The translations under genes and the position numbers were made by a program. 57,802 nt of DNA from Campylobacterales bacterium. Lineage in GTDB: Bacteria; Campylobacterota; Campylobacteria; Campylobacterales; QNZT01. The stretch is from contig JAMONX010000003.1 of the NCBI GenBank assembly GCA_027066435.1, forward strand, positions 1-57,802, given 5' to 3'. Below the pieces are notes generated by a model, which saw only the letters and a program-made list of their open reading frames with translations, made no database searches and was not told the DNA's origin. Below, piece after piece: positions 13,821-44,973 of this stretch. Numbering within the stretch: the stretch's first letter is position 1; each line of letters starts with the position of its first letter.

Positions 13821-14852
13821 TTATAGTATTAACATCGCATCACCGTATGAGTAGAAGCGATATTTTTTCTTTATAGCTTCACGATAGAGAAAAAGTGCTT
13901 CTTCAACTCCTACAAAACTAGCAACTAACATCAAAAGTGTAGATTTTGGGAGATGAAAATTTGTCAATAGATGATTTACTCTTTGGGGTAGATTTTTTGG
14001 ATGTAAAAAGAGATTTGATTTGCCAGATATTTTTTTTATTCTTTGATAATATTCAATAGTTCTAGTTACTGTTGTTCCAACTGCTAATATACTCTTATTA
14101 GAATCCAAAATCTTTTGCGTATCTTTGGGAATATTGTAAAACTCTTTGTGCATGATGTGGTTATTGATATTTTGATGCTCTACTGGCTTAAAAGTTCCAG
14201 CTCCCACATGAAGGGTTATAAAAGCACTATCATATTGTTCTTGCATCTTAGTTAAAAGTTCTGGTGTAAAGTGAAGAGATGCAGTTGGTGCTGCAACTGC
14301 ACCGATATTTTTTGCAAAAAGTGTTTGGTAGTTTTTTATATCCTCTTTGTTATCTTCTCTTTTTATATATGGTGGGAGAGGGATATGTCCTATGAGTTCT
14401 AAAATATCATTTAACTGTTCAAAATCTATTTCGCTATCTTTTTGATAAAACTTTACTACTCTTGTTCCATCTTCATTTATTTTTAAAATGCTAGCTGTGA
14501 GTTCTTGAGTAAATATAAGTTTAGTATCTTTCTTTACCTTACCTTTTATATAAACTAAAAAATTGTTATCTTTAAGTGGACTGTTTATAAGTAATTCTAT
14601 CTTTGCTCCACTCTCTTTATGTCCAAAGAGTCTTGCTTTTATCACTTTTGTGTCATTCAAAATTATAGAGCTATTCTTTGGAATGTGAGTTAAAATATCT
14701 CTAAATATAGTATGAGTTAGTGATTTGTCTTCACGATTATAGACTAAAAGTTTTGCACTATCTTTTGGGTTTGCAGGAGATGAAGCTATAAGCTCCTGTG
14801 GCAATTCATAATCATATGAATCTACCAAAAGAGGGTTTAAATTACTTCTCAT
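13821..14852 (-). CDS. queA: tRNA preQ1 S-adenosylmethionine ribosyltransferase-isomerase
   Basis: YDYELP, NDTKVIKARL, LPPYI, AAPTASLHF, TNFHLPKSTL, YSYGDAML; ATG at 14852 overlaps the tatC end. Confidence 0.96.
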   Translation of the reverse strand: MRSNLNPLLVDSYDYELPQELIASSPANPKDSAKLLVYNREDKSLTHTIFRDILTHIPKNSSIILNDTKVIKARLFGHKESGAKIELLINSPLKDNNFLVYIKGKVKKDTKLIFTQELTASILKINEDGTRVVKFYQKDSEIDFEQLNDILELIGHIPLPPYIKREDNKEDIKNYQTLFAKNIGAVAAPTASLHFTPELLTKMQEQYDSAFITLHVGAGTFKPVEHQNINNHIMHKEFYNIPKDTQKILDSNKSILAVGTTVTRTIEYYQRIKKISGKSNLFLHPKNLPQRVNHLLTNFHLPKSTLLMLVASFVGVEEALFLYREAIKKKYRFYSYGDAMLIL

Positions 14853-15573
14853 TTGTAGTTTCGACAACCTCTGGATTAACCTTTTTTGCAATCAGTATAG
14901 AAGCACCATAGAGTAGTATCATAGGACCTGCCATCAAAAACTGTGTTATTAAGTCAGGAGGTGTTAAAAGAGCTGAAAGTAAAAAGATAACAACAATCGC
15001 ATATCTAAAAAAATCAATCATTGTTCTATCTGTTACCAGCCCCATAGAAGCTAGAAAAAATGTAATTACAGGAAGCTCAAATGCTAACCCAAAACCAAGT
15101 AAAAGTTTTGTAAAAAAACCAACATAATCCCCAATACTTGGAAGTGCGGTAAAGAGTTGTGCTCCAAAATTTATAAGAAATTCATATCCAAAAGGAATTA
15201 CAACATAATAACAAAATGCAGAACCCATTAAAAACATAGTAGTTGCACCCACAACAAAAGGTACTACCATCTTTTTCTCATTTTCGTAAAGTCCAGGTGC
15301 TACAAAAAGCCATAATTGCCAAAAAATGATAGGAAGAGCGGCTATAAAACCTGAGAAGAATGCTACCTTTATCGCAGTAAAAAATGGTTCTTGAACTTTT
15401 GTAAATATAACACTGCTTCCTTCTGGCAGTACTTCAATTAGCGGAGCTATCATCCAGTTAAGTATAGGATTCCAAAAGGCAAACATTATAAAGAAAAGAA
15501 CTATGATAGAGCCTACAGATATTGCCAATCTTTTTCTAAGCTCCGCAAGGTGCGGTTTTAACTCCTCAAACAT
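14842..15573 (-). CDS. tatC: Twin-arginine translocase subunit TatC
   Basis: HLAELRKRL, FVAPGLYENE, FELP, LTPPD. Confidence 0.96.
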   Translation of the reverse strand: MFEELKPHLAELRKRLAISVGSIIVLFFIMFAFWNPILNWMIAPLIEVLPEGSSVIFTKVQEPFFTAIKVAFFSGFIAALPIIFWQLWLFVAPGLYENEKKMVVPFVVGATTMFLMGSAFCYYVVIPFGYEFLINFGAQLFTALPSIGDYVGFFTKLLLGFGLAFELPVITFFLASMGLVTDRTMIDFFRYAIVVIFLLSALLTPPDLITQFLMAGPMILLYGASILIAKKVNPEVVETTNEK

Positions 15574-15895
15574 CTTTTTTGTCCTTCTTATCTAGTTTTG
15601 TGACGGACTCTTTTATGTCGCTTATGCCCTCATTTAGGTCATCTATTATATTGACATCTTTTTTTACATCATTGACTGATTTTTCTAGTTCTTCTTTGTA
15701 CTTTATCGCACCATCTTTAAGTTCAGCTAGATGCATCTGGTGTTCGATTGTATCTTTTGCTTCATTGATACTGCTTTTAAAGCTTTTGAAAAATTTGGCA
15801 ATTTTCATCATAGCTTCAGGTAATTTTTCAGGTCCTAAAAATAGTACAGCGATAATTGCTATAACCAATATTTCTGCGAAACTCATTCCAAACAT
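15566..15895 (-). CDS. tatB: Twin-arginine translocase subunit TatB
   Basis: MFGMSFAEILVIAIIAVLFLGPEKLP; lies upstream of tatC. Confidence 0.93.
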   Translation of the reverse strand: MFGMSFAEILVIAIIAVLFLGPEKLPEAMMKIAKFFKSFKSSINEAKDTIEHQMHLAELKDGAIKYKEELEKSVNDVKKDVNIIDDLNEGISDIKESVTKLDKKDKKDV

Positions 15896-16113
15896 ATAGG
15901 TATGTCCTTACAATATTTTGAATAATTGTATCGAAATTTGTTTATTAAAACAGGAGAATTTAGTGAAACTAGTAAAAGAATTTTTAAAAACTGTCGATAT
16001 ACTTTATAATTTGATATGAAAATAAGTAGAATTTTTAATGATTTTGATATAATGTTTTCTAATAATTTGAGTTATAGTCACTCAAAAAATCAATTAATTA
16101 CAAGGGTAGGAAT

Positions 16114-17118
16114 ATGAAATTTGTTGGACTATTATTGACACTAGTTTTAACAGTATCAATAAGTGCAAAAGAGAGTACAAAATTAGTATGGCCTTCTCCT
16201 CCAGACCCCGCTAGAATAGAACTCCAAGGGGTTGTTACAAAGCCTGAAGATTTACAGATAGAGAAAGGACTCTTTACAAAGGTATGGGAATTTTTTGTAG
16301 GGTCTTCAAAAGAGAGTTTGGTTAAGCCATTTGGTCTTCATGTTGATGAGAATAGAAGAGTTTATATCACCGATGTAGGTTTAAGAGCAGTTATTATTTT
16401 AGATCCAACCAGAAATAAAAAATTGATTATAGATGGTTCAAAAGAGTATAAGCTTTTATCTCCTATGGATGTAGATACGGATGCTAGTGGAAATATATTT
16501 ATAGCAGATTCAGAGCAGGGGTTTATACATGTCTATGATAAAAATGGAAAATTTTTAAAAATTATAGGGAAAAAACGACTTCATAGACCAGTTGGTATTG
16601 CAGTTGATTCGAAATCAAATCTAATTTATGTGGTAGATACTTTAAAGAGTAAAATTCAAGTTTATTCAGTAGATGGAAAATATGTAAAAACACTTGGAAA
16701 AGTGGGAGCAGGTGATGGAGAGTTTAATAAGCCTACATATATCGCATTAGATGCGAATGATGGCTATCTTTATGTTAGTGATTCTATGAATCATAGAGTT
16801 CAGGTAATTGATAAAAATGGAAAATTTATTAATAAATTTGGACAATTAGGTAATACAATGGGCTCTTTTGCAAATCCTAGAGGTATAACCATAGATAAAG
16901 AAGGTCATATTTTTGTAACAGATACTACTTTTCATGCTGTACAAATATTTAATAAAAAGGGTCAGCTTCTTTTGGCATTTGGAAGTTATGGAGATCATAA
17001 AGGAGAATTTGCAATTCCTGAAGATATAGTTATTTCAAATGATGGAACTATATATGTTGCAGATTCATATAATATGAGGGTACAAGTTTTTAAATTATTA
17101 GAAGTTAAAACAAAATAG
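16114..17118 (+). CDS. Exported NHL-repeat (6-bladed beta-propeller) protein
   Basis: Signal peptide; WPSPPDPARI; repeated GEFxxPxGIxxD...IYVADSxNxRVQVF units. Confidence 0.9.
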   Translation: MKFVGLLLTLVLTVSISAKESTKLVWPSPPDPARIELQGVVTKPEDLQIEKGLFTKVWEFFVGSSKESLVKPFGLHVDENRRVYITDVGLRAVIILDPTRNKKLIIDGSKEYKLLSPMDVDTDASGNIFIADSEQGFIHVYDKNGKFLKIIGKKRLHRPVGIAVDSKSNLIYVVDTLKSKIQVYSVDGKYVKTLGKVGAGDGEFNKPTYIALDANDGYLYVSDSMNHRVQVIDKNGKFINKFGQLGNTMGSFANPRGITIDKEGHIFVTDTTFHAVQIFNKKGQLLLAFGSYGDHKGEFAIPEDIVISNDGTIYVADSYNMRVQVFKLLEVKTK

Positions 17119-17128
17119 GGGATAGTAG

Positions 17129-19216
17129 ATGAGAGAATTAAATAAAATTATTATATTGCTTTTATTGATACAAAGTGCAATTTTTGCGATAGTTGATAAT
17201 ACAAAGCATAATTTATCTGTAACGGGACCGGGCAGTGTTAAGTCACTTACTGAGACAGAGATTTGTGTGTTTTGTCATATTCCTCACTCTGCTCAATCTG
17301 GACGGCCTTTATGGAATAGAGCAATGCCAAGTGGTTCATATACTATGTATGAAAGTGATTATCTTGACAGATTAAATTATCCAAAACCAGCAGGACTAGG
17401 AGTTGCAAAAGGGACTCCTGGTTCTCTCTCTAGGCAGTGCTTAAGTTGTCATGATGGAACTATTGCAATAGGTTCTGTTTATATGGTTAGAGGAAATATT
17501 TTAGGAAATACACTTATAAATATGAGTGGTGTAAATGCAGGAGGAATGATGCCTGCTGGTAGTGCAGGTGACATAGGTACAGATTTATCAGTTCATCATC
17601 CTGTAGGATATGAATATAATCCAAATGTTACTGTAAATTTTGGTGAAGGAAATAGACCTAGTGAACTTAAACTTTCCCCAGATGCACCAATAAGACTTTA
17701 TCAATTAGGCTCTAAAAAATATGTAGAGTGTTCTACTTGCCATGACCCGCACAGTGAAAATAAAAAGTTTTTAAGAGTGAAATCTGGAGCAAATCATGGT
17801 CAAAATGTTCGTGATACCTGTTTAGCTTGTCATGATAAAAGTGGAGGTGTCCCATGGCCTACTACTCATGAAGTTATAGGTATGCCTTATAGAGATTCTG
17901 AAGTTTTTAGCAAATATGGCACATATAGTCCAAGTGATCTTTTTTGTGTTAATTGTCATACTCCTCACAATGGAGAAGGTAAACCATATCTTTTAAGAAA
18001 AATTGAACAGCAGACTTGTTTTCAAGGGGCCGCTTCGTCAGTTAGTTTATCATCTTGTCATGGATCAGGAGCTCCTACCTCTGCTCCAGATATTGAGTCA
18101 GTACTTTCAAGACCTTATGGACACCCAGTAATGGAGATAGATGGAGTACATACAAATCTTGATGTTTTATATGGAACAGGCGTAGCTAGAAATCCATCTG
18201 GAAGTAAAGGTTTAAGCTGGAGTGATTCAAAACATGCAGAGTGTATGGATTGCCATAATCCACATAAACTAGGGAGTAAAAATCATGTAGCTGATGGTCA
18301 ATGGTACCCTTCAATCCCTACAAATAATGTTTCCCAAGTTTTAAGAGGTGTTTCTGGGGTTGAACCAGATTGGACACCTAGAGGAATTCAGCCAACATCA
18401 TTTACTACACTTGAAACTGCAACTAAAGAGTACCAAATATGTTTAAAGTGCCACTCTTATTGGGCATTAGGTAGTGCTCCAGATGGCGTTTCCTCTCATT
18501 TTCTATCCGAATATGGTATAAATGCAACTGATCAAGCTTGGGAGTTTAATCCAAATAATCGTTCAGCTCATCCTGTTGTAATGCCGTTAAATCAAATGAC
18601 TGGAAATTATGCACCAAAAGCACTCCACTCTTCTCAGATGAAGCCACCGTGGAATACAAATGTAGGAAATCAGACAATGTACTGTTCTGATTGTCATGGT
18701 TCTGATAATGAGATAGGAGGGGATGCAAGAGGCCCTCATGGTTCAAACTATAAGTTTATGTTAAAGGGTGAAAATAATCATTGGCCATTAAAGCCTGATG
18801 GGTCGTATTATACAGTATGGGGTGATGTAGATTGGAGTACAAACAATGTAAATGATGGACTTTTTTGTAGAAATTGTCATAATATATATGTAAATGAACC
18901 AGGTGGTGCTGGCTCTCATAAAATGTTTTTTGGTGGTATGGGTGGACCTTGTGTAAATTGTCATATAGCAGTTCCTCACGGGTCTCCTGTTTCAAATTTA
19001 TTGGGTTATAGAAGTTTTCCTGAACCTTACAATTATAAAGATGAACAAACTGGTGAATTGATGTTAAAAATTGATGGATATAAAAAGATTGGGGCAAATT
19101 ACTCTACGGTAGATGTTAAAAAAGTTTATTCTACTCATCCTAGTTGTAGTGGTGGTAGTACTCACGCAGCTCATTGTCATGTGACGAATACAGGTGGCTA
19201 TGATAGTTATCCATAA
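17129..19216 (+). CDS. Large exported multiheme cytochrome c (10 CxxCH plus 2 atypical motifs) with OmcE-like N-terminal domain
   Basis: CVFCH, CLSCH, CSTCH, CLACH, CVNCH, CMDCH, CLKCH, CSDCH, CRNCH, CVNCH; also CX12CH and CX9CH; signal peptide. Confidence 0.9.
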   Translation: MRELNKIIILLLLIQSAIFAIVDNTKHNLSVTGPGSVKSLTETEICVFCHIPHSAQSGRPLWNRAMPSGSYTMYESDYLDRLNYPKPAGLGVAKGTPGSLSRQCLSCHDGTIAIGSVYMVRGNILGNTLINMSGVNAGGMMPAGSAGDIGTDLSVHHPVGYEYNPNVTVNFGEGNRPSELKLSPDAPIRLYQLGSKKYVECSTCHDPHSENKKFLRVKSGANHGQNVRDTCLACHDKSGGVPWPTTHEVIGMPYRDSEVFSKYGTYSPSDLFCVNCHTPHNGEGKPYLLRKIEQQTCFQGAASSVSLSSCHGSGAPTSAPDIESVLSRPYGHPVMEIDGVHTNLDVLYGTGVARNPSGSKGLSWSDSKHAECMDCHNPHKLGSKNHVADGQWYPSIPTNNVSQVLRGVSGVEPDWTPRGIQPTSFTTLETATKEYQICLKCHSYWALGSAPDGVSSHFLSEYGINATDQAWEFNPNNRSAHPVVMPLNQMTGNYAPKALHSSQMKPPWNTNVGNQTMYCSDCHGSDNEIGGDARGPHGSNYKFMLKGENNHWPLKPDGSYYTVWGDVDWSTNNVNDGLFCRNCHNIYVNEPGGAGSHKMFFGGMGGPCVNCHIAVPHGSPVSNLLGYRSFPEPYNYKDEQTGELMLKIDGYKKIGANYSTVDVKKVYSTHPSCSGGSTHAAHCHVTNTGGYDSYP

Positions 19217-19217
19217 A

Positions 19218-19667
19218 ATGAAATTTTTATTTGTAATTTTACTTGTGCCTTTTTTCTTAAATGCACAAGTTGATAATAGAGATATAAAAAAAGTCATCAT
19301 AAGTTATAATCAAGGTATTATAAAAGCAGCAAAGACAAGCAAAACAGAGCATATGAAAAGCTATGCAAAAGAAGATATAGTAAAAAAATTTCATCTTTGG
19401 ATAAAGTCTTGGCATGATAATAATCTCTTTATGGATGCAAAAATTAAAGATATAAATTTTCAAAAAGTTGAGATAAAAGATGGCAAAGCAAAAGTTACAA
19501 CAAATGAAGTTTGGATATATAGATATATTGATATCAAAACAAGAAAACAAGTTTTAGATGCGACTTTAATGACTTATAATATGAATTATATATTATCAAA
19601 AGAGAATGATAAGTGGATTATTGAAAAAATAGATGTAATATTTGAAAAGAAAGAGAAACTTAAGTGA
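19218..19667 (+). CDS. Exported hypothetical protein, possibly NTF2-like fold
   Basis: ATG at 19218 directly after the cytochrome stop; signal peptide; AKVTTNEVWIY...YILSKENDKWIIEKI pattern. Confidence 0.65.
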   Translation: MKFLFVILLVPFFLNAQVDNRDIKKVIISYNQGIIKAAKTSKTEHMKSYAKEDIVKKFHLWIKSWHDNNLFMDAKIKDINFQKVEIKDGKAKVTTNEVWIYRYIDIKTRKQVLDATLMTYNMNYILSKENDKWIIEKIDVIFEKKEKLK

Positions 19668-19713
19668 AGAATTTTTTTTTTAGTACGATATACAAATAAA
19701 CAGGGAAAATATA

Positions 19714-20439
19714 ATGAGGAATATTTTAAATAGAAAATATATTCTTACTATTTTATTAATGTTACCAATGGTTGCAAATAGCGGTTCTGTAGTTGGTTCA
19801 AAACATGATTTAAGTAATAGTAACTTTTATGGGGCTTTTGCTGGTTCAAGTACTCAAGTGTGTGTTTTTTGTCATACACCTCACTCCTCAAATAGTGGAC
19901 TAGCAGATGCGGGAGGTGCAAATGCTCCAATATGGAATAGAAGACTTACTAATTTAAGTGCATTTACACTATATGATTCAAGTGTAGGAACACCTAGTTC
20001 AATTTCTCTAGCTTGTCTTAGTTGTCATGATGGTGCAAGTGGTATGGGTAGAGTAAGTGCAGTAGGACCAGTAGATGCACATAATGTAATTAATGCATCT
20101 GGTACTGGTTTAGCAGGTGATAGTGGTAATGGTGGTGAGACTCCAAATTGTGCTGCTTGTCATCCATTTGCTCGACCAAGTGGTGGTACTACATATCCTA
20201 GTACTACCTGGCAAATAGGAGCTGATTTAACAGATGATCATCCAATCTCTATAAATTATGCTGCTTCCTTTGCCCATAATCCTGATGAATTTCTTTCTCA
20301 ACCAGCTAATGGGCTTAAGCTTTTTAATGGATTAATAGAGTGTGCAACTTGTCATAATGTACATGATAATGACAATGGACTCTTTTTAAGAACATCAAAT
20401 ATGGGAAGTGGGGTATGTAAATCTTGTCATATTAAGTGA
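19714..20439 (+). CDS. Pentaheme cytochrome c, OmcE-like
   Basis: CVFCH, CLSCH, CAACH, CATCH, CKSCH; motif order KHDLS / PIWNR / DLTDDHPI / FLRTS as recalled for Geobacter OmcE. Confidence 0.85.
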   Translation: MRNILNRKYILTILLMLPMVANSGSVVGSKHDLSNSNFYGAFAGSSTQVCVFCHTPHSSNSGLADAGGANAPIWNRRLTNLSAFTLYDSSVGTPSSISLACLSCHDGASGMGRVSAVGPVDAHNVINASGTGLAGDSGNGGETPNCAACHPFARPSGGTTYPSTTWQIGADLTDDHPISINYAASFAHNPDEFLSQPANGLKLFNGLIECATCHNVHDNDNGLFLRTSNMGSGVCKSCHIK

Positions 20440-21484
20440 TAAATAGAGCTATTTCATCAGATAGAAAATAGTTAGTATTAAAAAAGCGGTCATTTAATTG
20501 AGTTAATTTTTTTTCTTTCAATAGAGTTTCGACATTTTTGTATTCACAAGATGTGAGAATATCTTTTGAAAACCCAACTATACTTCTAAGTCCTAAAAGG
20601 ATTTGTTCACTTTTTATAGCTTCATTATTTAGCATCTCTTCATCAATTAAAAGAGGGTTCTTTATATATGATTCAATATTGTTATCTGTATAAAATCTTC
20701 TATTTTCTAAAAATCCAACTGCACCACTTCCTATGCCTATATAATTTTTATATTGCCAATAGCCAAGATTATGTTTTGATTTTTTTTTGCCAAAATTTGA
20801 AATTTCATATTGTGGGAATCCTTTTTTTTCTATTTCATTTATAAACCAGTAGGCTAAATCTTCATCATCATTTTGAACTTTTGGGGTATTTATAAAGGGA
20901 GTATTATCTTCAAGTGTTAGCGAATATGCACTTATATGATCAATCCTTAGTGAAATAGCTATTGTTAAATCTTTAAATAAAAGTTTTTTAGTATCTTGTG
21001 AAGTTCCATATATTAGATCAAGTGAAATATTTTTAAATCCTATCTTTTTTGCATTATTTATAGCTTCAATTGCCATCTTTTTTCCATGGTTTCTTCCAAG
21101 CATTTTAAGTTTATCTTCATCAAAGCTTTGTACTCCAAAACTGATACGATTGACTCCTAACTTTTGCATCCCTTGAAGCCAAATAGCAGTTGCACTATTT
21201 GGATTGGCTTCGGTTGTGATTTCTGCATTTTTTTTTAGATAAGGTTTAATGAGTGAAAAAAATGGTTCATAAAGTTTTGGTGTAATGGTAGAAGGAGTGC
21301 CACCTCCAATAAAAAAGCTTTCTATGCTATTTTCTAAGAGATTAAATCTTTTAATCTCATTTGAGAGTTGAGTTAAAATAGTTTTCATATATTGCTCTTT
21401 TAATTCAAATTTATCAACATATGAGTTAAAAGCACAATAGTGACACTTACTATCACAAAAAGGGATGTGTAGGTATAAAAGCAT
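20432..21484 (-). CDS. hemW: Radical SAM heme chaperone HemW
   Basis: LYLHIPFCDSKCHYCAF, GGGTPS, YEISNF, HNLGYW. Confidence 0.92.
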   Translation of the reverse strand: MLLYLHIPFCDSKCHYCAFNSYVDKFELKEQYMKTILTQLSNEIKRFNLLENSIESFFIGGGTPSTITPKLYEPFFSLIKPYLKKNAEITTEANPNSATAIWLQGMQKLGVNRISFGVQSFDEDKLKMLGRNHGKKMAIEAINNAKKIGFKNISLDLIYGTSQDTKKLLFKDLTIAISLRIDHISAYSLTLEDNTPFINTPKVQNDDEDLAYWFINEIEKKGFPQYEISNFGKKKSKHNLGYWQYKNYIGIGSGAVGFLENRRFYTDNNIESYIKNPLLIDEEMLNNEAIKSEQILLGLRSIVGFSKDILTSCEYKNVETLLKEKKLTQLNDRFFNTNYFLSDEIALFIT

Positions 21485-43791: not shown

Positions 43792-43834
43792 ATTATACCA
43801 AATATTACTATTTAATAGTATTGACTCTTATCAA
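43792..43834 (-). promoter_or_regulatory. Crp/Fnr-family (Nss-type) box and extended -10 element
   Basis: TTGACTCTTATCAA at 43821-43834, 23 nt from TATAAT (43792-43797, preceded by TGG on the minus strand). Confidence 0.6.
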
Positions 43835-44973
43835 TCTTGTATCTTAAATATCTTTCTTGTAAGTGTAATAAATTTTGATAATCTTTTTTCTTTGAGTTGT
43901 AGTTTCTTGGCGATTTGTGGGTTTACGATATGGTATCCAAATCTTACAGTGACTATATCTCCACTTTTAAGCTCCTTATTAAATTTTAACTCTCTTTTTT
44001 CAAAAGCTTTGATAGTTTTGTCTGTGATAATTTCATCAGCTATCCAAGGCATAGTTGGCTTACCATCTTTTCCTATAACTTTTATAAAGATTACATCTTT
44101 TAGTTCTATGATTTTATCTTCTCTTTGTAAAGAGACTTTGAGTTTTGATAATCTTAAAGGGTGAGGTGTTAGAGTATGGTTTGAACCATTTTTTACAGTT
44201 ATTACAAAATTCTTGTTTCCCTTTTCTAAAGAAAGCTTGACATGTTTTGATAGTAAAAATGGTTTATCTATGAGTGCCGTTGCCCCGTGAAATGCATGTG
44301 TTTTAGTATCTTTATGATTTACAAAAGATCCTGAAACTTGAGGCATATGACAGGTGATACAGTTCTCTTTAAAATCACTTTTACCTTTTTTGATTTCAAA
44401 ATCACACACTTTGAAGCCATGATCATTTTGTTTATGAGAATGGCAACCTAGACACATATTGCCGTTGTAGTAGTTTTCATTTGAATAATTTATATCATGA
44501 TAGGGAGAGCCAACCATCTTTGTTAAGCTACTTTGCGGTTTAAACTCTAGCATTTGCCCTTTTTTATCAATATTTCTTGCAAAAATTGTCTTCTTTTGGG
44601 TAATTTGAATATTTGTATTGCTTTTTGCATGTTCTTCTATGCTTTTTATTTGATGGCAGTATTGACAAGAGATAGGTTCGTGTAGTTGGATGCTATTTTT
44701 TGACAATTTTGTTTCACCGCTTATGAGTTTTTTATCTGATGGTGTGTGACACTTTGCACATTTGAAGTTATTGGTTTTAGAGAGTGGGTGTTTTTCCCAA
44801 ACTGCACGAAAGATTTCATTTTTGTAAATAGACGCTTTTGCATGCATCGAACTTTGGTACTCTTTGTAAATTTTGGGATGACAAGCCTGACATATGTGAG
44901 TCTTTAACTCCTTACTTGCATAAGTGTTAAGTGTCGTAAATAATAGTATGCCTAAAGTGATAAATATCTTCAT
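43831..44973 (-). CDS. Periplasmic pentaheme cytochrome c (c554-like N-terminus)
   Basis: Signal peptide; CQACH, CAKCH, CQYCH, CLGCH, CITCH. Confidence 0.88.
   Translation of the reverse strand: MKIFITLGILLFTTLNTYASKELKTHICQACHPKIYKEYQSSMHAKASIYKNEIFRAVWEKHPLSKTNNFKCAKCHTPSDKKLISGETKLSKNSIQLHEPISCQYCHQIKSIEEHAKSNTNIQITQKKTIFARNIDKKGQMLEFKPQSSLTKMVGSPYHDINYSNENYYNGNMCLGCHSHKQNDHGFKVCDFEIKKGKSDFKENCITCHMPQVSGSFVNHKDTKTHAFHGATALIDKPFLLSKHVKLSLEKGNKNFVITVKNGSNHTLTPHPLRLSKLKVSLQREDKIIELKDVIFIKVIGKDGKPTMPWIADEIITDKTIKAFEKRELKFNKELKSGDIVTVRFGYHIVNPQIAKKLQLKEKRLSKFITLTRKIFKIQD

Follow-up and report, generated by a model that had tools for sequence, protein, structure and literature searches.

Described systems closest to the locus

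Two kinds of described system come closest to the locus treated here. The first is built around OmcE, a tetrahaem cytochrome of Geobacter sulfurreducens whose filament has been solved (PDB entry 7TFS). A minimal omcE cluster consists of two multihaem cytochromes, two propeller lipoproteins, OmcE itself and a large barrel, and putative OmcE homologues are reported from five phyla including Campylobacterota (PMC13712944, mBio 2026). The second is the uet cluster (undecahaem electron transfer) of Candidatus (Ca.) Tenderia electrophaga, proposed for electron uptake, in which tetrahaem UetA, the isomerase UetB, the barrel UetC, triheme UetD/E/G and the cupredoxin UetF are joined by the NHL proteins UetH and UetI, undecahaem UetJ and then ccsAB (10.1101/2022.05.06.490989). 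The uet cluster is also found in six Gallionella genomes (PMC10734462). Here we compare both systems with a block of four genes at positions 16114-20439 of a 57,802-nucleotide stretch of DNA from a Campylobacterales bacterium (contig JAMONX010000003.1; the whole stretch is called the window in the following). The block encodes an NHL-repeat propeller of 334 amino acids (aa), a large multihaem cytochrome of 695 aa, a small exported protein of 149 aa and a five-haem cytochrome of 241 aa. Its membership of an OmcE/Uet-type system is near certain, and a role in extracellular electron transfer is likely and represents the best reading. PMC13712944, PMC10734462, PMC5815863, PMC11748539 and the preprint 10.1101/2022.05.06.490989 are cited throughout for those parts of their text that were accessible.

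Five-haem variants of OmcE have been reported before. PMC13712944 mentions "many" OmcE-like proteins with five CxxCH motifs, mostly from uncultured bacteria of many phyla, for which AlphaFold3 predicts an insulated OmcE-like stack and an exposed extra haem. The 241-aa protein fits this group in sequence, length and its five CxxCH. A pairing of such proteins with a UetJ-type cytochrome that carries an OmcE module is not found in the accessible text of that paper. The kind of system is already described and our locus adds a member to it. A literature search gave no paper with both "UetJ" and "OmcE", and "uet" together with "OmcE" occurred only in a review. Three points were not found in print: that the Uet and OmcE gene sets are equivalent, that UetJ-type cytochromes start with an OmcE-like module and that there is an NTF2-like companion (described below); the figures and supplements of PMC13712944 may bear on each of them.

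More remote likenesses exist. The loci DFE_448-451 and DFE_461-465 of Desulfovibrio ferrophilus IS5 hold outer-membrane multihaem cytochromes beside NHL propellers, a likeness by description only, whereby the propellers are proposed to stabilise the cytochrome complex (PMC5815863). OmcZ, the "leaky" nanowire of G. sulfurreducens, is alike in function only, as one solvent-exposed haem per subunit is predicted for the five-haem proteins (PMC13712944). In sequence and fold OmcZ is unrelated to OmcE, and it lacks inter-subunit His ligation (PMC9473688). For Sulfurimonas, extracellular transfer to Mn(IV) oxide and an association with cable bacteria are discussed (PMC11748539). An earlier note on the window, made from the sequence alone, had spoken of a lineage not known for such transfer. 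This part has to be withdrawn, since Campylobacterota are named in PMC13712944 and Sulfurimonas is discussed in PMC11748539.

The 241-aa protein is a five-haem homologue of OmcE

The last gene of the block (19714-20439, + strand) encodes a protein of 241 aa with a signal peptide and a likely mature start at G24. A phmmer search against all PDB chains matches it to OmcE of G. sulfurreducens (7tfs_A) at E 6.7e-26 and to 9yuq_N at E 6.1e-18. Both hits are OmcE-type and they are the only two among 177,635 distinct PDB sequences. The match to OmcE consists of two stretches, whereby residues 9-116 and 162-241 of the query align to 9-118 and 135-232 of OmcE. Since the similarity covers the whole length at this E value, the likeness is not due to chance. 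In OmcE and 9YUQ the four CxxCH and the four distal His occur in the same order as in the 241-aa protein; all of them are of one length class, have a signal peptide and are associated with a beta-propeller gene. In the PDB 9YUQ is titled "putative multiheme cytochrome c"; we infer that it probably corresponds to the OmcE bundle from Desulfuromonas soudanensis in PMC13712944. Judged from these alignments the 241-aa protein is near certainly a true OmcE homologue.

In contrast to tetrahaem OmcE, the 241-aa protein has a fifth motif, CAACH at 146-150, which together with H123 lies in an insert that has no counterpart in OmcE. Because of its five CxxCH it is placed in a five-haem OmcE-like subfamily and not in OmcE proper. 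The locus further differs from OmcE in that no barrel or glycosylation genes are nearby.

The haem ligands were evaluated in an alignment of the 241-aa protein and 30 relatives, which were picked for having five motifs. His 31, 54, 57, 105, 150, 176, 214, 217 and 239 are invariant in these 31 sequences, and H123 is present in at least 90% of them. This includes all eight ligand His of OmcE, i.e. the distal H31, H57, H176 and H217 as well as H54, H105, H214 and H239 of the CxxCH motifs. C146, C149 and H150 of the additional motif are invariant columns, too. The ten conserved His amount to two per haem and thus suggest five bis-His haems, with H123 as the likely sixth ligand of the extra haem at C146-H150.

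The family is large, comprising 2003 proteins at E ≤ 1e-5 among 2756 candidates. Among the best 120 homologues 91 have five CxxCH motifs, 28 have four and one has three. The nearest named relatives are proteins of Sulfurimonas and of Sulfurimonadaceae metagenome-assembled genomes (MAGs) with ~47-54% identity. AlphaFold2 without haems gives a poor model of the 241-aa protein (predicted local distance difference test, pLDDT, 57.6), for which Foldseek returns 7tfs as the single match (E 5.5e-5, TMq, i.e. the template modelling (TM) score of the query, 0.38).

The earlier note had given the motif order of OmcE from end to end and a fifth haem (CAACH) added in a loop. Every motif it named stands in the printed alignment with 7tfs_A, and the loop is the stretch without counterpart in OmcE. 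The alignment to OmcE that it had proposed as a check extends over the whole length, far beyond the CxxCH motifs, and the loss of ligand His that it had considered did not occur.

An OmcE-like module heads the large cytochrome

The second gene (17129-19216, + strand) encodes the 695-aa cytochrome. It has 10 CxxCH motifs plus CX12CH (297-311) and CX9CH (673-684), in agreement with the "10+" haems counted earlier, and probably carries ~12 haems as far as can be judged from its motifs. Residues 9-237 match 7tfs_A 13-232 at E 2.6e-25 (phmmer) with all eight ligand His kept. The protein is thus laid out as an N-terminal OmcE-like tetrahaem module (~21-240) followed by an extension of ~455 aa. This module had been overlooked in the earlier note, which had rightly recognised the OmcE homology of the 241-aa protein.

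An alignment of 20 members from several phyla shows conservation over the whole length. The 10 CxxCH, C297/C310-H311 and C683-H684 are kept, and the invariant His suffice for ~12 bis-His haems. The place of CX12CH is taken by a plain CxxCH in relatives with 11 CxxCH, and the place of CX9CH by CX3CH in relatives. Searched by itself, the C-terminal part yields 1228 homologues (E ≤ 1e-10), almost all of 660-740 aa; named ones stem from Nitrosophilus alvini, Persephonella hydrogeniphila and Sulfurimonas sp. and are annotated just as "cytochrome c3 family". Two neurotoxin light-chain entries that match the 695-aa protein at E 1.6-1.7 are chance hits and were discarded.

The idea that the 695-aa protein is a tandem of three OmcE-like tetrahaem modules was evaluated with hhalign using the five-haem profile against parts of it. 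Residues 241-470 are matched with a probability of 97.3% (E 2.5e-11, 137 columns) and residues 471-695 with 83.7% (70 columns); with single sequences the values are 95.9% and 3.2%, respectively. Among the controls, an unrelated 8-haem cytochrome of the host genome (contig C125) reaches 96.5% over 125 columns, and others reach 82-93% on stretches of ~30 columns with paired CxxCH. On these values such a tandem is no more than possible.

In Wolinella a CX15CH motif depends on a haem lyase of its own. A tblastn search of the host genome detects one CcsBA-type haem lyase only.

The first two genes correspond to uetI and uetJ

The Uet comparison was done by BLASTP against a Ca. Tenderia sp. contig which shows the published uetA-J/ccs order, so that UetI and UetJ are identified by position and not by accession. 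The NHL protein of the block matches the UetI position with 31% identity over 346 aa (E 6.5e-57) and the UetH position at E 6e-16. The 695-aa protein matches the UetJ position with 29% identity over 836 columns (E 1.9e-65). On these similarities the first two genes of the block are read as a pair homologous to uetI-uetJ. The NHL propeller had been recognised in the earlier note, which missed its pairing with the large cytochrome as in uetI-uetJ. The 241-aa protein matches the UetA position (E 1.2e-23) as well as residues 35-272 of the UetJ-position protein (E 1.4e-20). The latter match implies that UetJ-type proteins in general carry an OmcE-like module.

Uet thus resembles the block in having an NHL propeller directly upstream of a large multihaem cytochrome, these two being the best BLASTP matches. 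It also resembles the host genome, where UetA-like tetrahaem proteins, a UetB-like isomerase, a large barrel and a haem lyase are found on contigs C59 and C60 (see below). In contrast to the one contiguous uet cluster, the host set is split over at least three contigs. Moreover the UetJ-position protein has 905 aa and UetJ has eleven CxxCH, whereas the block cytochrome has 695 aa and ten canonical CxxCH. The five-haem gene and the NTF2-like gene are additions in the block. For UetD/E/G (triheme c7) and UetF (cupredoxin) no match was found among the 18 host proteins compared; no genome-wide search was made. The block itself is devoid of isomerase, barrel, triheme c7, cupredoxin and lyase genes according to open reading frames (ORFs) and Pfam.

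In a Ca. Tenderia sp. locus (L058) and ~20 gammaproteobacterial loci, a five-haem OmcE-like gene is directly followed by an NHL gene, and often by a second protein with five CxxCH of ~335 aa. This pair seems to be the "secondary cluster" (pentahaem plus NHL protein) described in the accessible text of the Tenderiales preprint 10.1101/2022.05.06.490989.

The propeller and the small NTF2-like protein

The first gene of the block (16114-17118, + strand) encodes the exported 334-aa propeller at the UetI position. It matches Pfam NHL (E 1.5e-35) as well as a family of 6-bladed propellers (E 3.3e-20). A signal peptide is present and a lipobox Cys is not seen (both by eye).

The third gene lies in an ORF of 157 aa from GTG (19194-19667, + strand); the likely start is the ATG at 19218, leading to an exported protein of 149 aa (19218-19667). 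No Pfam or NCBIfam family exceeds the threshold, ARC6-like_IMS being found at E 0.034, and only 14 homologues are found at E ≤ 0.001. AlphaFold2 predicts a well-defined structure (pLDDT 91.8, predicted TM score 0.83). The top Foldseek matches are the intermembrane-space domains of PARC6/ARC6 (TM 0.71, E 4e-6); next in line are C-terminal domains of Tim44 and enzymes with an NTF2-like fold. Based on this model, the small protein is taken for a binding module of the NTF2 type; the PARC6 domain, which it resembles, binds the C-terminal peptide of a partner.

The block is an insertion between tatB and hemW

All four genes at 16114-20439 are co-directional on the + strand with gaps of 10, ~1 and 46 bp. 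They are flanked by tatB (15566-15895) on the left and a hemW-like radical-SAM gene (20432-21484) on the right, both on the - strand. hemW runs towards the 241-aa gene, and the two overlap stop to stop by 8 bp. The hemW gene was sought in five relatives of the family and was found in all of them (60-70% identity); in one (G001) it is split over two contigs, and the four other loci were examined. Three of these four, G028 and G029 of the same genus and G019 of another genus, show the order queA-tatC-tatB-hemW-rppH-lysC-x-holB with a tatB-hemW spacing of 38-122 bp. The fourth locus (G027) has a different context upstream of hemW.

Contigs of a metagenome run from an independent study (X3) cover window positions 14800-18568 and 18544-21466, with 35 differences in 3769 bases and 30 in 2923 bases; no insertion or deletion is listed. 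Both junctions of the block are spanned by these contigs and are therefore real and no artefact of the assembly. The four-gene block is confirmed as an insertion between tatB and hemW. Both the four-gene operon on the strand opposite to its flanks and its insertion at this site had been proposed in the earlier note, and both are borne out.

Those metagenomes which contain the block and have an organism label are hydrothermal-vent metagenomes. RNA runs are not among the data listed for this stretch. Based on relatedness, the host is a hydrothermal-vent Sulfurimonas-like member of the Campylobacterota; we call it Sulfurimonas-like because the nearest named relatives of the 241-aa protein belong to Sulfurimonas and to Sulfurimonadaceae MAGs, and because of synteny.

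Further parts of the system are encoded elsewhere in the genome

In the host genome eight places match the 241-aa protein and 21 ORFs have three or more CxxCH. At the end of contig C59 three omcE-like tetrahaem genes of 239 aa lie in tandem (15328-17837, L010), the third being cut by the contig end. Their products match the UetA position with 36% identity (E 1.2e-32) and are thus closer to it than the 241-aa protein. Contig C60 (1-11802, L012) opens with the C-terminal piece of another omcE-like gene. Next come genes for an NHL lipoprotein and a SurA-like isomerase, which matches the UetB position at E 4e-32, and then for a 583-aa protein and a fused ResB-CcsA. No Pfam family is assigned to the 583-aa protein; its closest likeness is to outer-membrane barrels of the TIGR03016 type (feature score 0.98, TM 0.78-0.79). 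On the other strand of C60 a convergent operon is headed by the gene for a NapC/NirT-type cytochrome and encodes three more cytochromes, with 3, 11 and 7 CxxCH; the data agree with this operon being the inner half of a uet-like conduit. The end of C59 and the start of C60 are probably one locus broken by a repeat.

The arrangement in Sulfurimonas sp. STA_8 (L071) connects these pieces. Here an 11-haem and an 8-haem cytochrome, a tetrahaem omcE-like gene, an NHL gene, an isomerase, a 585-aa barrel, a second NHL gene, a 695-aa cytochrome, a small protein of 164 aa and CcsBA are encoded in one direction. Each gene of this cluster has its best host match in C125, C59/C60 or C3. The second NHL protein, the large cytochrome and the small protein are 51%, 53% and 35% identical to those of the block, respectively, and the 585-aa barrel is 27% identical to the 583-aa protein of C60 (E 2.6e-61). 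The 11- and 8-CxxCH cytochromes of C125 show 66% and 49% identity to those heading the STA_8 cluster. Since on C60 the barrel is directly followed by CcsBA, the block corresponds to the STA_8 segment between barrel and CcsBA, plus the five-haem gene. By gene content and synteny, the block is read as a displaced sub-module of a larger OmcE/Uet-type system.

The term "nanowire cluster" used in the earlier note fits only as to the OmcE homologue that the block contains. It is misleading in that the block is not self-contained, as barrel, prolyl isomerase and cytochrome synthase reside on C60. The search for a porin-cytochrome conduit that the note had recommended leads to C60, where barrel, isomerase, lipoprotein propeller, CcsBA and a cytochrome operon are located.

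The genes of the block move as small blocks. In another genome of the same genus (G031) the five-haem gene is found directly ahead of a ResB-like gene, and in two genomes of another genus (G016, G014) the large cytochrome and the five-haem gene form a pair between PhnA-like and uracil-DNA-glycosylase genes.

Additional multihaem cytochromes were noticed in the host genome. C154 (717-5398, L009) encodes a 667-aa paralogue of the 695-aa protein (59% identical), located directly behind an 889-aa lipoprotein with FG-GAP repeats and not behind an NHL protein. On C125 (459-5951, L011) the genes for a rhodanese and for an OmcE-like tetrahaem protein of 214 aa are divergent from the 11- and 8-CxxCH cytochromes; two Sel1-repeat proteins are encoded there as well. 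C128 (22104-25086), C143 (6708-8702) and C121 (20858-21904) encode cytochromes with 8, 8, 8 and 10 CxxCH, one of them with an IPT/TIG domain.

Neighbourhoods and phylogeny of OmcE-like genes

The neighbourhood of OmcE-like genes was surveyed in 78 loci from many phyla using one genome per species, whereby the loci were found with five-haem patterns and the shares are biased accordingly. An NHL homologue is located within 8 kb of the OmcE-like gene in 65 of the 78 loci. A homologue of the small protein is present in three, in STA_8 directly after the 695-aa homologue. Small OmcE-like proteins number 89 in these loci, of which 45 have four CxxCH and 44 have five; there are also 23 large cytochromes that include an OmcE-like part, 17 with 11 CxxCH and 6 with 10.

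A quick maximum-likelihood tree of 119 modules was built; it is unrooted and results from a short search. The N-terminal modules of the large cytochromes form one group (26/26, Shimodaira-Hasegawa-like approximate likelihood ratio test, SH-aLRT, 96). The five-haem proteins cluster likewise, 43 of 45 falling into one group of 47 rows (SH-aLRT 96), which includes the 241-aa protein, paired with a protein of a Campylobacterales MAG. Tetrahaem proteins of the Geobacter type are located outside the five-haem group.

Predicted contact of the two OmcE-like parts

A complex of the mature 241-aa protein (24-241) and the N-terminal module of the 695-aa protein (21-240) was predicted. The heterodimer scores 0.62 as compared to 0.33 for the best of three controls. 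Of 157 solved complexes 116 attain the mark for a complex, and of 215 mismatched pairs 2 do so; these counts hold only roughly here as our own alignments were used. At least 97% of the contacts are common to the runs, and the partner's pLDDT is at least 87. On the side of the 241-aa protein the predicted interface comprises 165-176 including His176, 213, 223, 229-235 and 240-241, i.e. the C-terminal face. On the side of the 695-aa protein it comprises 21-23, 30, 32, 43-47, 50, 52-56, 61, 119, 121-124 and 208, i.e. the N-terminal face. The predicted contact is head to tail and leaves the eight-haem extension free.

A possible mode of action would be as follows. All four products of the block would be exported by Sec, and the one CcsBA of the genome would take care of cytochrome maturation. 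The barrel, propeller and isomerase encoded on C60 would help the cytochromes across the outer membrane. Outside the cell the five-haem protein would stack head to tail like OmcE, each subunit providing a His to the haem of its neighbour, while the fifth haem, probably surface-exposed, could act as a side contact. The N-terminal OmcE-like face of the 695-aa protein would dock on the C-terminal face of the five-haem protein, and the 695-aa protein would prolong the chain of haems, acting as end piece or anchor. Electrons could flow either way: Mn/Fe oxides or partner cells would receive them, or solids would supply them.

The steps of this scheme differ in likelihood. The chances that the five-haem protein forms a filament are about even. 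A function of the 695-aa protein as the end piece of such a filament is conceivable, yet we rather doubt it. On the whole, and including the inferred steps, we consider a displaced OmcE/Uet sub-module for extracellular electron transfer the best explanation of the block and hold it with moderate confidence. Extracellular electron transfer had been suggested in the earlier note and is retained. Extending this to other organisms is speculative: UetJ-type cytochromes with ~12 haems might be the missing end pieces of OmcE-type nanowires, with the eight-haem extension as tip or barrel anchor, and the Uet and OmcE systems, treated in separate literatures, might then be one machine. According to the accessible text of PMC13712944, no OmcE-like tip candidate with extra exposed haems was found in the OmcE operons examined there.

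Sulfur-oxidising Campylobacterota dominate hydrothermal vents and redoxclines. If the proposed function is true, extracellular wiring would open solid Mn/Fe oxides, sulfide minerals and partner cells as electron sinks or sources, and the niche of Campylobacterota and their role in metal and sulfur cycling would have to be modelled differently. Moreover, a five-haem subunit together with a fused OmcE-module cytochrome would represent a compact pair to study how filaments start, end or attach, a question left by the structural papers.

Filament, conduit or periplasmic module

Several observations speak against a filament-forming sub-module for extracellular electron transfer. The complex prediction may recall the solved OmcE filament and would then reflect likeness, not binding. 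Many OmcE homologues may be monomeric. In the accessible text of PMC13712944 likely nanowire subunits are counted only when genes for a barrel and a propeller lipoprotein are nearby; the block holds a propeller without lipobox, whereas barrel and lipoprotein propeller reside on C60. Homologous barrel and propeller genes are contiguous with the cytochrome in Sulfurimonas sp. STA_8. The 583-aa barrel of C60 shows no BLASTP match to the UetC position at E 1e-3. In G016 and G014 the pair of large cytochrome and five-haem gene has no NHL or small-protein gene beside it, homologues of the small protein being located on other contigs, so that the four genes are not an obligate unit. Finally the distribution is patchy: among 31 other genomes of the family, a five-haem orthologue (E < 1e-100) is present in 3 and the 695-aa family (E ≤ 1e-40) in 4. 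All carriers of the five-haem orthologue found here are MAGs.

The alternative that survives best is a Uet-type porin-cytochrome conduit without filaments, in which the 695-aa protein would be a single long haem wire positioned at or through the outer-membrane barrel with the propeller's help, and the five-haem protein a monomeric or short-oligomeric surface cytochrome that exchanges electrons with substrates. It agrees well with the first two genes of the block matching the uetI-uetJ positions best. In the accessible text of 10.1101/2022.05.06.490989 UetJ is moreover modelled as an extracellular wire of haems with the shape of a bar, and Uet is taken for a porin-cytochrome complex; no filament of five-haem OmcE-like or Uet proteins is reported in the accessible text of this preprint, PMC13712944 or PMC10734462. 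The five-haem family, however, keeps all four distal His of OmcE invariant, including those needed for the inter-subunit ligand, and the interface of the predicted heterodimer is head to tail. In addition, at least three tandem tetrahaem omcE-like genes lie beside the barrel set, as expected for an abundant structural subunit. We regard such a conduit as a serious, if less probable, explanation.

A periplasmic electron-transfer module, e.g. carriers for a periplasmic sulfur or nitrogen reductase or oxidase, is improbable. All four proteins have ordinary Sec signal peptides (by eye), the block contains no secretion or barrel gene, and with its 21 ORFs of at least three CxxCH the genome is rich in multihaem cytochromes, all of which would suit such carriers. 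No gene for a catalytic subunit is found in or beside the block, however, the flanks being tatB and hemW. Among relatives of known structure the closest are extracellular filaments, and the same genes adjoin an outer-membrane barrel in other genomes. Recently acquired DNA that is silent or decaying, as an insertion with patchy distribution might suggest, is highly improbable given four intact frames with every haem motif and ligand His kept, an operon-like gene spacing and the presence of the block in the independent run X3 with 35 and 30 differences in its two contigs and no listed indel.

Sequence context of the block

The intergenic region upstream of the NHL gene (15896-16113, + strand) comprises 218 bp. 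It contains an extended -10-like sequence, TGATATAAT, at 16045-16053 and a ribosome-binding-like AGG ahead of the ATG. As a reading of the sequence and not as evidence of function, TGATATAAT is a candidate promoter element; a consensus scan of 15800-20700 yields 25 promoter-like sites as compared to 25.4 expected from shuffled sequences and hence no statistical support. Terminator-like sites inside the block were not detected (0).

The GC content is 0.28-0.41 within the block and 0.27-0.34 in its flanks, so that base composition is not decisive as a sign of foreign origin. With regard to mobile elements, no noteworthy direct or inverted repeats flank the block; the repeat families there are CxxCH-coding words. 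None of the four block proteins has an NCBIfam match above the curated cut-offs.

In one low-depth contig of metagenome run X2 an extra G is present at window position 17124, within the 10-bp spacer of the NHL and 695-aa genes. It is probably strain variation or an error. Apart from the block, the window encodes a 380-aa protein with five CxxCH at 43831-44973 (- strand), which is weakly similar to cytochrome c554 (Pfam E 7.8e-07) and unrelated to the block.

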